A stretch of 64,000 bases of DNA from Escherichia coli (GTDB taxonomy: Bacteria; Pseudomonadota; Gammaproteobacteria; Enterobacterales; Enterobacteriaceae), in the NCBI RefSeq assembly GCF_003334305.1, contig NZ_QOWS01000019.1; one strand, 5' to 3'. Positions 20,921 to 22,849 of the stretch are shown here, piece after piece. The first letter of the stretch is position 1. Each line of letters begins with the position of its first letter. The notes below the pieces were generated by a model. That model did not search any database, was not told the DNA's origin, and saw nothing but the letters and a program-made list of their open reading frames with translations. The position numbers were made by a program, and so were the translations under genes.

Positions 20921-22114
20921 TCAGGACAGGCGGGTAACTTTCTGTGGCCATGGATCAGGGAATACTCCACCCGACATCCACCACTGAATTTCTTCTTCAG
21001 TCAACAAGCAAAGGGATAAGGCATGTGTAAAATCATTAACTTCAGTGGCATTGCCAATGATAGTCAACTGACAGCAGCGATCGCCAAATCGCCCAGAGGC
21101 TGTGTCGATGTGTCGCTGTAGCGCTGAACGTTCTTCACGAGTTAAATTATTGTCAGTATGTTCCAGTACTCCAGCTTTCCAGTAGCCAATGAGCGCCAGA
21201 CTGATGCTTCCTGCTGACTGATTCCAGAGCAGGGCAAGATCATCTCTCCCGGGGAGCCAAAAAAAACCTTTACTGCGATAAACGCCCATGCCCATAAAGC
21301 GGTGACAGGTATCCCATAATCTTTGCGGATGGAATGGCCTGTCGTCCCTGATGACGCGCCATATAAGTTCCTCATTGTTGCACGGAGTATCCATGTTTCC
21401 TACAAGTGCTTCCAGTTCACTGATGAGTAACTCAACACGGTCAAAATTGTAGTCCGGGATCGCCAGTAATGTGCTCAGTTCAATATTTCCCCATGATACC
21501 GCGAGCACATCCACGGAGGGGTTAAGTGGGTGTATGGCTTTTGCCACAGCGGAGATAATGTCAAAGGGCAGGCGGTCATTTCTGGTCAGCAGCAGCCTGT
21601 TGCAGAACATGATTTGCTCGGCCAGCAAATTCTCCAGGCCGCGTTTGTTATGCCGGAGATTTTCCTGAAGAGTGGGGATCAGTTTTTTCCCATCATTGTA
21701 ATCTTCATGGAGCATGACAGTATCAACGAGTGTTAAAAACGCCTTCAGGCGTACACGTGAATGGCGACGCAGGTATTTGACCAGAGGAAGCGGATGACTG
21801 CTTCCGGAGGTTTCAATCAGCATCACATCCGGCTTGTTGTGATCAAGCAGGTGGTTAATTGCGAGATCCATCTTTTTGAGGCCTGCGGGGCTGCTGATGC
21901 TGTCTGCGGTGATACTTACGAAATTATTGTCTTTTGCATCTACAATATCTGTGTTGGCGATCAGCACGCCGTCCACATCCAGTTCGCTCATGTCATTGAC
22001 TATGACAGAGACTGAAAGCTGTTTTTCGTGTGCCTGTATGAGCAGGTTTTTCAGCAGAGTGGTTTTCCCTGCGCCGAGGAAGCCATTGAGAATGATGACA
22101 GATGTTGTTTCCAT
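20921..22114 (-). CDS. COG0523-family (CobW/YjiA-like) P-loop GTPase lacking the canonical CxCC metal-binding motif
   Basis: Walker A GFLGAGKTTLL and Walker B-like LIETSG are present; the position expected for GCICC reads ADSISS. The ORF extends upstream to 22228; start at METTSV (22114) chosen as the conservative option. Confidence 0.7.
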   Translation of the reverse strand: METTSVIILNGFLGAGKTTLLKNLLIQAHEKQLSVSVIVNDMSELDVDGVLIANTDIVDAKDNNFVSITADSISSPAGLKKMDLAINHLLDHNKPDVMLIETSGSSHPLPLVKYLRRHSRVRLKAFLTLVDTVMLHEDYNDGKKLIPTLQENLRHNKRGLENLLAEQIMFCNRLLLTRNDRLPFDIISAVAKAIHPLNPSVDVLAVSWGNIELSTLLAIPDYNFDRVELLISELEALVGNMDTPCNNEELIWRVIRDDRPFHPQRLWDTCHRFMGMGVYRSKGFFWLPGRDDLALLWNQSAGSISLALIGYWKAGVLEHTDNNLTREERSALQRHIDTASGRFGDRCCQLTIIGNATEVNDFTHALSLCLLTEEEIQWWMSGGVFPDPWPQKVTRLS

Positions 22115-22849
22115 ATCAGCAGTACACCAGTTAGTTAGCGAGGAAGGCGCTTGGTGGTACAAAGAGCATCCGGATTGAATCGCATAACGTCGACGGGAGT
22201 TGTTGTCGTTTTTCCTGTGAGGTCTCAACCTGCCACAGAACGCACCGGACTTATTGGTATTTAGTCTCCATCAGCATAATTATCACCATTTTTATCTCCG
22301 GGGGAAGATTTGTTCTGAACAGGAGTGGGAGGTGTGACCTCCTGAAAGTAATTACAGATTGCTAGTTGTTGTATTTTTATTCGAATATGTCTCTTCGTAT
22401 CAGTGATAGCACCTAGATAAAGTATATTCCGGGAGCGTTATCTGTTCTAGATATCAGAGAGTCAGTCATTTGTAAAAAAGAGAGCTGCATCATTCTATTT
22501 TTCCTGTCTATTCACCCTGTTGTCGTATCTAAAAGACATCCGTTCCGAGGATGTCGGGCACCCGTTCTGTACTAAGATACATAGCTTTTGGGTCTGCACT
22601 ATTTGGAACCGACAGAAGTCTGTCTGTGATATCCGCATTTTTCTGTGTGCGATATATTCCGAAAAACTTCAAACCACTTAAAAGAGGTGTTTCCGGAGGA
22701 TAAGTTCGACCAGGGAATAGTGTTTCCTGGTAAGTGTGGCGGAGCCAGTTCACCAGGAGTATCTTTCTTATCCAGTTATACTGGATTTTATTAGATGATC
22801 ACCCTACCCTGCAGCAGTACGCTGACGGTGTTTTTTTGGGAGAACCATT

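Follow-up and report, generated by a model that had tools for sequence, protein, structure and literature searches.

The CxCC motif of the COG0523 GTPases has been termed "family-defining and invariant" (PMC13001444) and was the inclusion criterion of the original phylogenomic survey of these proteins (Haas 2009), so that a clade without the motif would have been left out of that survey by construction. Zinc at CxCC stimulates the GTPase activity of ZigA and MigC, and COG0523 hydrolysis is driven by an arginine finger, RxKG, in the C-terminal domain (PMC13001444, PMC12208494); RxKG was further reported in a 2026 preprint to be invariant across COG0523 and needed for GTP hydrolysis (PMC13001444). 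The present analysis concerns a gene for a COG0523 homologue without CxCC, located on the minus strand of a 64,000-nucleotide stretch of Escherichia coli DNA (RefSeq assembly GCF_003334305.1, contig NZ_QOWS01000019.1; the whole stretch is referred to here as the window), which is a ColV/ColBM-type IncFIB/FIC plasmid. The clade to which the protein belongs keeps all GTPase elements and swaps three cysteines for serines, and would thus offer a natural separation of the GTP switch from zinc binding. Its genes are found mostly in Zur-box-controlled zinc islands, often together with a true ZigA, which makes a role of the GTPase cycle beyond the holding of zinc testable.

ZigA is the best curated match to the window protein (NF038288; cluster 1 of the COG0523 sequence similarity network, SSN; including Acinetobacter baumannii ZigA and Pseudomonas aeruginosa PA5535), and it occurs in the same Zur-controlled islands as the orthologues. 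The two proteins have the same two-domain architecture and length and both contain Walker A, a switch I of the form VNDMSE-x-x-[IV]D, E-[ST]-[ST]-G, RSKG, RPFHP and a D-P-[WF]-P tail. However, the window protein scores 200.2 bits against the ZigA model, under its 600-bit equivalog cut-off, and shares 27.7% identity with Klebsiella ZigA. Compared with two sets of 40 and 18 canonical sequences, its clade is without CxCC (SxSS) and without the PETEEY linker and has His for Glu after Walker B, and the Gln of GDRRQ in ZigA is replaced by Cys.

A precedent is CobW3 of Cupriavidus metallidurans (Rmet_0125), a Zur-regulated COG0523 member for which loss of the internal GCxCC has been reported (PMC11340326). 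In CobW3, a deletion of about 38 amino acids (aa) removes both switch I and CxCC, whereas in the window protein the motif is substituted and switch I and full length are kept. CobW3 also has a C-terminal His-rich metal-binding tail, which the window protein lacks, and its sequence, rebuilt from the text of Fig. S7 and hence approximate, is 42% identical to ZigA and 26% to the window protein. Orthology with CobW3 was rejected on the basis of this low identity, of substitution instead of deletion and of the missing tail, and CobW3 appears to represent a different route to the same site loss. The chromosomal COG0523 proteins of E. coli, YjiA and YeiR (PDB 1NIJ and 4IXM), have a fold in common with the window protein but only about 18-26% identity; the C-terminal domain of YjiA is shorter, and its metal motif reads GCICC. 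Membership of CobW (TIGR02475) was likewise rejected (80.2 bits against a cut-off of 332); cobalamin genes were absent from every neighbourhood read, with no riboswitch scan made. A description of the SxSS clade was not found in the searchable literature, a search that did not extend to the COG0523 network review of Edmonds et al. 2021, whose minor clusters might include the clade; nothing relevant was found on ColV and CobW.

The SxSS site and the clade that carries it

The open reading frame (ORF) occupies 20921..22228 on the minus strand, that is, 435 codons counted from TTG, and this extent had been taken as the gene in an earlier note on the same DNA. RefSeq, through its Prokaryotic Genome Annotation Pipeline (PGAP), starts the gene at ATG 22114, giving a 397-aa product, WP_000450494.1, labelled "GTP-binding protein" or "CobW family GTP-binding protein". 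The equivalent Met is the start in all orthologues aligned and the upstream extension is present in none of them, while DNA homology to the orthologous loci ends at 22115-22118 on the upstream side, as does translated homology, and at 20913 on the downstream side. Since annotation, orthologue starts and homology limits all point to ATG 22114, the 38-codon extension is unsupported and the earlier start lay 114 nt too far upstream. The gene and its motifs (all on the minus strand) are as follows.

20921..22114, minus strand: coding sequence (CDS) for the COG0523 GTPase without CxCC, 397 aa and a stop codon (ORF list, RefSeq, Pfam, full-length orthologue alignment, DNA homology limits)
22115..22228, minus strand: in-frame 38-codon stretch back to TTG, probably a noncoding 5' leader (homology and annotation stop before it)
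22058..22084, minus strand: G1 / Walker A, GFLGAGKTT, residues 11-19; invariant in the family and identical to the ZigA-type consensus
21968..22006, minus strand: G2 / switch I, VIVNDMSELDVDG, residues 37-49; invariant or nearly so in the family, aligning with ZigA-type VIVNDMSEVNIDA
21890..21907, minus strand: A-D-S-I-S-S, residues 70-75, at the position of N-G-C-I-C-C (sequence, L-INS-i, hhalign)
21794..21814, minus strand: G3 / Walker B, ETSG (residues 101-104) plus His107, reading ETSGSSH; ESTGISE in canonical ZigA
21575..21586, minus strand: G4 guanine-specificity motif, T-R-N-D, residues 177-180 (read from the sequence)
21266..21277, minus strand: RxKG arginine-finger motif, R-S-K-G, with R280, S281, K282 and G283 invariant
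20924..21367, minus strand: C-terminal CobW_C-type domain, about residues 250-397, bearing the clade signature FGDR-x-C-x-LT-x-IG ... C-x-LT-E-x-E-I ... DPWP, common to every CxCC-less representative (Pfam, AlphaFold secondary structure)

Residues A70-D71-S72-I73-S74-S75 (minus-strand codons GCA GAC AGC ATC AGC AGC) lie opposite N-G-C-I-C-C when 41 members of the family are aligned by L-INS-i with YjiA and 40 canonical sequences of the ZigA type. The same register was obtained in a profile-profile comparison by hhalign with 18 canonical sequences (Prob 100, E 2.6e-69), and it agrees with the AlphaFold model, in which a strand (65-68) is followed by a loop (69-75) and a helix from residue 76. 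By these two alignments CxCC has become SxSS, with Ser for each Cys and the Ile kept, in the register that the earlier note had proposed. A register four to five residues earlier, with GCICC opposite N-F-V-S-I-T, was given by HMMER and by a MAFFT-auto pairwise alignment with YjiA and was overturned by L-INS-i and hhalign. Across the family the replacement segment reads N-F-[VI]-[ST]-[ILV]-[ST]-A-D-[SN]-[IV]-S-S, S74 and S75 being invariant or nearly so, and Bacteroidota and Planctomycete members carry the variant YSC[IV]LSS.

The unusual motif and the surroundings, rich in insertion sequences (IS), are all that speaks for a decaying or frameshifted pseudogene, or for a cysteine motif displaced to another position, and these two explanations, both raised in the earlier note, retain next to no probability. 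The protein aligns over its full length with orthologues of 397-400 aa, with no frameshift; C-x-C-C was searched along the whole window protein and not found, and CxCC occurs in the first 140 residues of none of the 115 family members. Together with the hhalign register, this refutes a displaced motif. Moreover, among 117 sites conserved in at least 95% of orthologues, the plasmid copy deviates at only two, P5S and K178R, as compared with a family median of 1 and mean of 1.65. Judged from these alignments, loss of the motif is a conserved feature of the clade and not decay.

The sequence elements of the GTPase are retained in full (G1, switch I, G3, G4 and RxKG). GFLGAGKTT, VNDMSELDVDG, ETSG and the C-terminal RSKG are invariant in the family alignment, as are the individual residues E101, T102, S103, G104, S105 and H107, which bears out the earlier description of Walker A and ETSG as intact. 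G4 reads T-K-x-D in 99% of orthologues and T-R-N-D in the window protein, and Klebsiella variicola P0024 likewise has Arg at position 178. With regard to family membership, Pfam finds cobW (PF02492, E 3.4e-25) and CobW_C (PF07683, E 2.7e-14, residues 254-370), so that the N-terminal G3E domain and the C-terminal CobW_C domain with RxKG expected of COG0523 / G3E proteins are both present, whereas S72-I73-S74-S75 stands opposite the C-I-C-C of the CxCC criterion. The protein thus counts as a COG0523 homologue through its descent and fold, and lies outside the motif-based definition. Its AlphaFold2 model has a mean pLDDT of 80.7, and YjiA is both its sole sequence match among solved structures and its best fold match. 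The top query TM-score of the fold search (0.54) belonged to Shulin, an outer-dynein-arm regulator of Tetrahymena (PDB 6zyw_Y / 6zyx_Y), as against 0.35 for YjiA, a value probably lowered by the differing domain orientation in the model.

In a protein search, over 100 relatives of full length and 50-70% identity were obtained, from Kosakonia, Pectobacterium, Klebsiella (1,921 sequences in one cluster), Pantoea, Erwinia, Brenneria, Rouxiella, Obesumbacterium, Vibrio, Celerinatantimonas, Pseudomonas graminis and Bacteroidota; the 115 orthologues examined for the motif have the same range of identity. When 1.84 billion representative sequences were searched with the family profile, all top-scoring sequences bearing Walker A, from 657 down to about 240 bits, were without CxCC, and proteins with GCICC first appeared at about 230 bits. 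Variants of the site among these CxCC-less top scorers include SISS, GSISG, GTLSS, GSIHS and GSLGG, and all full-length sequences among them retain RxKG and a shared C-terminal signature, FGDR-x-C-E-LT-V-IG ... C-x-C-T ... DPWP; the remoter CxCC-less lineages are rare and come mainly from metagenome-assembled genomes (MAGs). The clade is a sister of canonical ZigA. Genome contigs were also scanned with a profile of the family alignment, and among the matches listed most were canonical ZigA genes and at least two were true members, both from Planctomycetes; these matches provided canonical sequences for comparison and a positive control in the search for Zur boxes. An Akkermansiaceae MAG (L011) encodes another CxCC-less COG0523 protein (7992-9176; 33% identity to the window protein; region ...AALHGVHAREH...), directly followed by a canonical GCICC COG0523 gene (9252-10091), and a pairing of C-minus and C-plus COG0523 genes thus seems to recur in distant phyla.

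Zinc-starvation loci of the orthologues and a proposed function

The neighbourhood survey of orthologues that the earlier note had proposed gave different pictures for the plasmid copy and its relatives: the ColV copy is solitary, but most sampled relatives lie in or next to zinc-starvation clusters with Zur boxes. Six of the nine genera sampled outside E. coli link the orthologue to Zur-box-controlled zinc-starvation loci, with a ZigA-type gene in the same locus in four of the six, and the orthologue adjoins folE2 in four genera. In Kosakonia, Klebsiella and Pantoea alike, a divergent gene for a 150-aa Fur-family regulator lies upstream and dksA, folE2 (the product of which exceeds its NCBIfam cut-off) and a gamma-carbonic-anhydrase-like gene lie downstream, and the same locus contains paralogues of CysRS and ThrRS, a FeoB-like gene and a cobW gene of about 407 codons. 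Other zinc-related genes present there depend on the genus and include those for a QueD-like protein, a pyrC2-like amidohydrolase, a hemB paralogue, an amidase and znuA. The 407-aa cobW product of Klebsiella is a ZigA equivalog (702 bits against the cut-off of 600) with GCICC and PETEEY, and the neighbouring DksA carries one Cys in the zinc-finger region instead of the canonical four, and is therefore a C-minus DksA2. In Pectobacterium, the orthologue directly follows a canonical ZigA-type gene with GCICC and PETEEY behind an exact Zur box, and zinT/znuA adjoin; in Obesumbacterium it follows folE2 and a gamma-carbonic-anhydrase (gamma-CA) gene, with an exact Zur box ahead of the cluster; on a plasmid of Ps. 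graminis, its ATG is preceded at a distance of 43 nt by an exact palindromic Zur-box core. No such box precedes the window gene.

These boxes were scored with the core TGTTATRWTATAACA, which we take to be the gammaproteobacterial Zur operator consensus. The Klebsiella locus contains 10 matches to it with at most two mismatches, against 0.15 expected, and these mark four sites, one of which lies 26 nt past the GTPase stop and upstream of dksA; matches were also present upstream of canonical ZigA genes in unrelated loci, as a positive control. A different element, the 21-bp inverted repeat TATTGCAA-N5-TTGC[AG]TTA (TATTGCAA-N5-TTGCATTA), was confined, in Kosakonia, Klebsiella and Pantoea, to the interval that separates the SxSS GTPase gene from the divergent regulator gene (L002 7952-7972; L006 and L007 7953-7973; L089 6942-6962). 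The 150-aa regulator stays below the equivalog cut-offs for Fur, Zur and PerR. It may be that the island encodes a second metal sensor and that the repeat is the operator dedicated to it. Upstream of a Planctomycete copy (L009) there is a similar palindrome, GATGCAATAAAATTGCAAGT.

As the orthologues occur in Zur-box zinc clusters, the diverged function of the clade most likely lies within the zinc-limitation response. The argument of the earlier note against a zinc or cobalt chaperone is thereby upheld in part, in that zinc-thiolate binding of the ZigA type is ruled out and function has diverged, but the loss of CxCC does not place the protein outside zinc biology. We give an even chance to the interpretation that the window protein is a thiolate-free "C-minus" paralogue of ZigA, that is, a GTP switch without zinc gating. 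According to this proposal, the clade, in which the zinc-thiolate site is replaced (CxCC to SxSS), the PETEEY linker lost and the Glu after Walker B changed to His, would be a GTP-driven switch or adaptor made in zinc limitation and cycling with no gating by zinc. Cells would rely on it once zinc no longer suffices for the gating of ZigA. Its action would be on, or together with, the zinc-independent substitutes of the adjoining genes, among which FolE2 and DksA2 are nearest; the ColV gene would have been cut from this zinc-island context by IS activity. The logic would be like that of DksA2 and of the C-minus forms of L31 and L36, in which a Zur-island paralogue has its zinc-ligand cysteines substituted and the rest conserved, as in the C-minus concept described in PMC10393844. 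The likeness is one of principle and not of homology, and replacement of ZigA by the window GTPase is a proposal only.

The conserved replacement residues have also been considered as ligands in their own right. Asp71, Ser72/74/75 and His107 would in this case form an O/N site for a harder metal, Fe(II), Mn(II) or Co(II), which the protein would load, as a metallochaperone, into the zinc-independent and metal-promiscuous paralogues of the adjoining genes (FolE2, gamma-carbonic anhydrase, QueD2-like). An invariant His107 where canonical proteins have Glu or Asp after Walker B, Asp71 in place of Gly beside the old site, and the fact that the replacement residues are conserved and not random are consistent with such a site, as is the position of the GTPase gene next to folE2 in four genera, given that FolE_IB enzymes have been reported to use Fe, Mn or Co instead of Zn, and that CobW1 binds FolE_IB2 (PMC11340326, PMC10882993). 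However, serine hydroxyls are poor ligands for transition metals, the motif varies to YSC[IV]LSS in Bacteroidota and Planctomycete members, and Asp71 and His107 would have to lie close together in space; a hard-metal chaperone, the main alternative to the C-minus ZigA, is considered unlikely. A role like that of mycobacterial Mrf is very improbable. Mrf, a COG0523-like protein of degenerate type, brings a hibernation factor to ribosomes and does not carry metal. Mrf/Rv0106 is also Zur-regulated and without a full CxCC (CXSC; Haas 2009), and the window protein gives a weak match to the NCBIfam hiber_recruit model over the linker and C-terminal domain (residues 119-388), but its score is 67.2 bits against a cut-off of 375 (NF047431), a model on which genuine ZigA itself scores 207. 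In addition, Rv0106 was reported to be without both GTPase motifs (Haas 2009), which are intact in the window protein, and no alternative ribosomal-protein gene was seen in the neighbourhoods read; membership of Mrf was rejected.

Several points weigh against the interpretation as a C-minus ZigA. We infer the loss of metal binding from ligand chemistry alone, and a metal site of another kind could be made up of Asp71, the three Ser and His107, the last newly invariant. The plasmid copy has K178R in its G4 motif, a change that may affect nucleotide affinity or specificity. The neighbourhood sample comprises about a dozen loci, and in those of Vibrio, Celerinatantimonas and one Bacteroidota genome the copy stands alone and lacks a Zur box within 300 nt. 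The element preceding the orthologue in Kosakonia, Klebsiella and Pantoea is the noncanonical palindrome, not a canonical Zur box, and zinc regulation of the orthologue itself is unproven there. Lastly, we infer that the published gene pS88137, the transcript of which is considered below, is the window gene from gene order (iss ... putative GTPase ... etsC) and not from sequence.

If the window protein is a C-minus ZigA, COG0523 GTPases would have a metal-independent core activity. More tentatively, and with less confidence than in the C-minus assignment itself, it is suggested that the zinc-sparing response includes either a zinc-free replacement of its own metallochaperone, in which GTP-driven engagement of clients is kept, or a dedicated Fe/Mn chaperone for FolE2-type paralogues. 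Under either reading the clade would be a natural separation-of-function variant, present as a de-regulated copy on ColV plasmids in about 12% of complete E. coli genomes.

Some further features of the orthologous loci were observed. On the plasmid-like contig of Ps. graminis, a gene for a 259-aa Peptidase_M24 protein of the methionine-aminopeptidase type (L008 10888-11667) follows the SxSS GTPase gene with its Zur box at a distance of 1.7 kb downstream; methionine aminopeptidase is the established client of the eukaryotic COG0523 protein ZNG1. The enterobacterial zinc islands contain a conserved pair of genes, for a FeoB-like GTPase/Gate protein and a pyridine-nucleotide-disulfide oxidoreductase, with a Zur box upstream (L006 3125-5916; L002 1149-5900; L089 2135-4912), and the FeoB-like gene of Kosakonia is split by an IS21 insertion. 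Ahead of the folE2-gamma-CA-GTPase cluster of Obesumbacterium lie fragments of IS110 and IS3 (HTH_Tnp_1) elements (L092 2950-4193), the same IS families as those flanking the ColV copy; no DNA homology was detected between the flanks.

The copy on the ColV plasmid

On the ColV plasmid, the GTPase gene is placed between etsABC and iss/iroBCDEN, amid IS debris in which the neighbouring IS3, ISNCY and IS110 remnants are pseudogenised. Its position alone between an IS2 fragment and an IS110 fragment agrees with what the earlier note had described. The neighbouring elements are as follows.

19418-20284: ISNCY transposase
20471..20788, minus strand: IS2 TnpB fragment directly downstream of the GTPase gene (NCBIfam PRK09409, E 1.2e-25, partial)
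23003..23167, plus strand: IS110-family transposase fragment upstream of the GTPase gene (NCBIfam transpos_IS110, E 1.9e-09, 51/343 positions)
From 23338: IS2

A copy with at least 99% identity was found in 644 of 5,426 complete E. coli genomes (661 plasmid and five chromosomal locations), with at least 80% query coverage in 630 of the 644 carriers, and 551 PLSDB plasmids, including those of Salmonella, contain full-length matches. In 639 E. coli genomes the gene is accompanied by an unannotated stretch of 1.2 kb (22115-23337). The label "CobW family GTP-binding protein" has been placed on hundreds of plasmids of extraintestinal and avian pathogenic E. coli (ExPEC/APEC), and on many Klebsiella genomes, although the cobalamin or zinc-chaperone role that it implies is unjustified by the sequence.

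No Zur box was found between 20921 and 23338 (best 12/23), upstream of the window gene there was no candidate Fur box better than 13/19, and no consensus sigma-70 promoter was found upstream on the minus strand. A terminator-like hairpin with a T-run at 22555-22535 (minus strand) precedes the GTPase start by about 420 nt and would shield the gene from transcripts reading through from the side of IS110/IS2. A tblastn search with 19 island proteins found no remnants of other island genes in the window. As homology ends at the CDS and both island genes and Zur box are missing, the ColV copy is an orphan decoupled from zinc control. The transcript of pS88137, annotated as "putative GTPase" between iss and etsC, was detectable, with fold changes of 0.40 in dipyridyl, 0.52 in serum, 0.64 in urine and 1.59 in vivo, and was not induced under the authors' 4-fold criterion (PMC3438092). 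Nothing ties the GTPase gene to the iron systems of the plasmid, pS88137 being uninduced by iron chelator, serum or urine, and in the light of an uninduced transcript and a missing native promoter, operator and Zur box, its contribution on ColV may be small or nil.

These observations raise the question of whether the ColV copy is functionless cargo, a zinc-island fragment trapped between IS elements and hitch-hiking with a conserved virulence region. It is isolated amid pseudogenised IS3, ISNCY and IS110 remnants, has no partner gene, Zur box or native promoter, and is uninduced in iron-depleted lysogeny broth (LB), serum and urine (PMC3438092; gene identity by order); K178R, moreover, falls in the guanine-binding motif, and intactness of the gene says little on selection, because recent spread accounts for the identity of at least 99% among the plasmids. 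However, coverage is at least 80% in nearly all carrier genomes though the IS neighbours are degraded, constraint on the lineage is normal, as seen from the two changes at conserved positions, and the transcript is detectable. The cargo explanation is regarded as rather doubtful, and the C-minus ZigA paralogue is retained as the preferred interpretation of the protein.

Elsewhere in the window, two Zur-box-like palindromes (9307-9321 and 9447-9461), each with two mismatches to TGTTATRWTATAACA, lie between the plasmid ompT and IS3-type remnants, and the window as a whole contains 20 matches to this core with at most three mismatches, against 4.9 expected.

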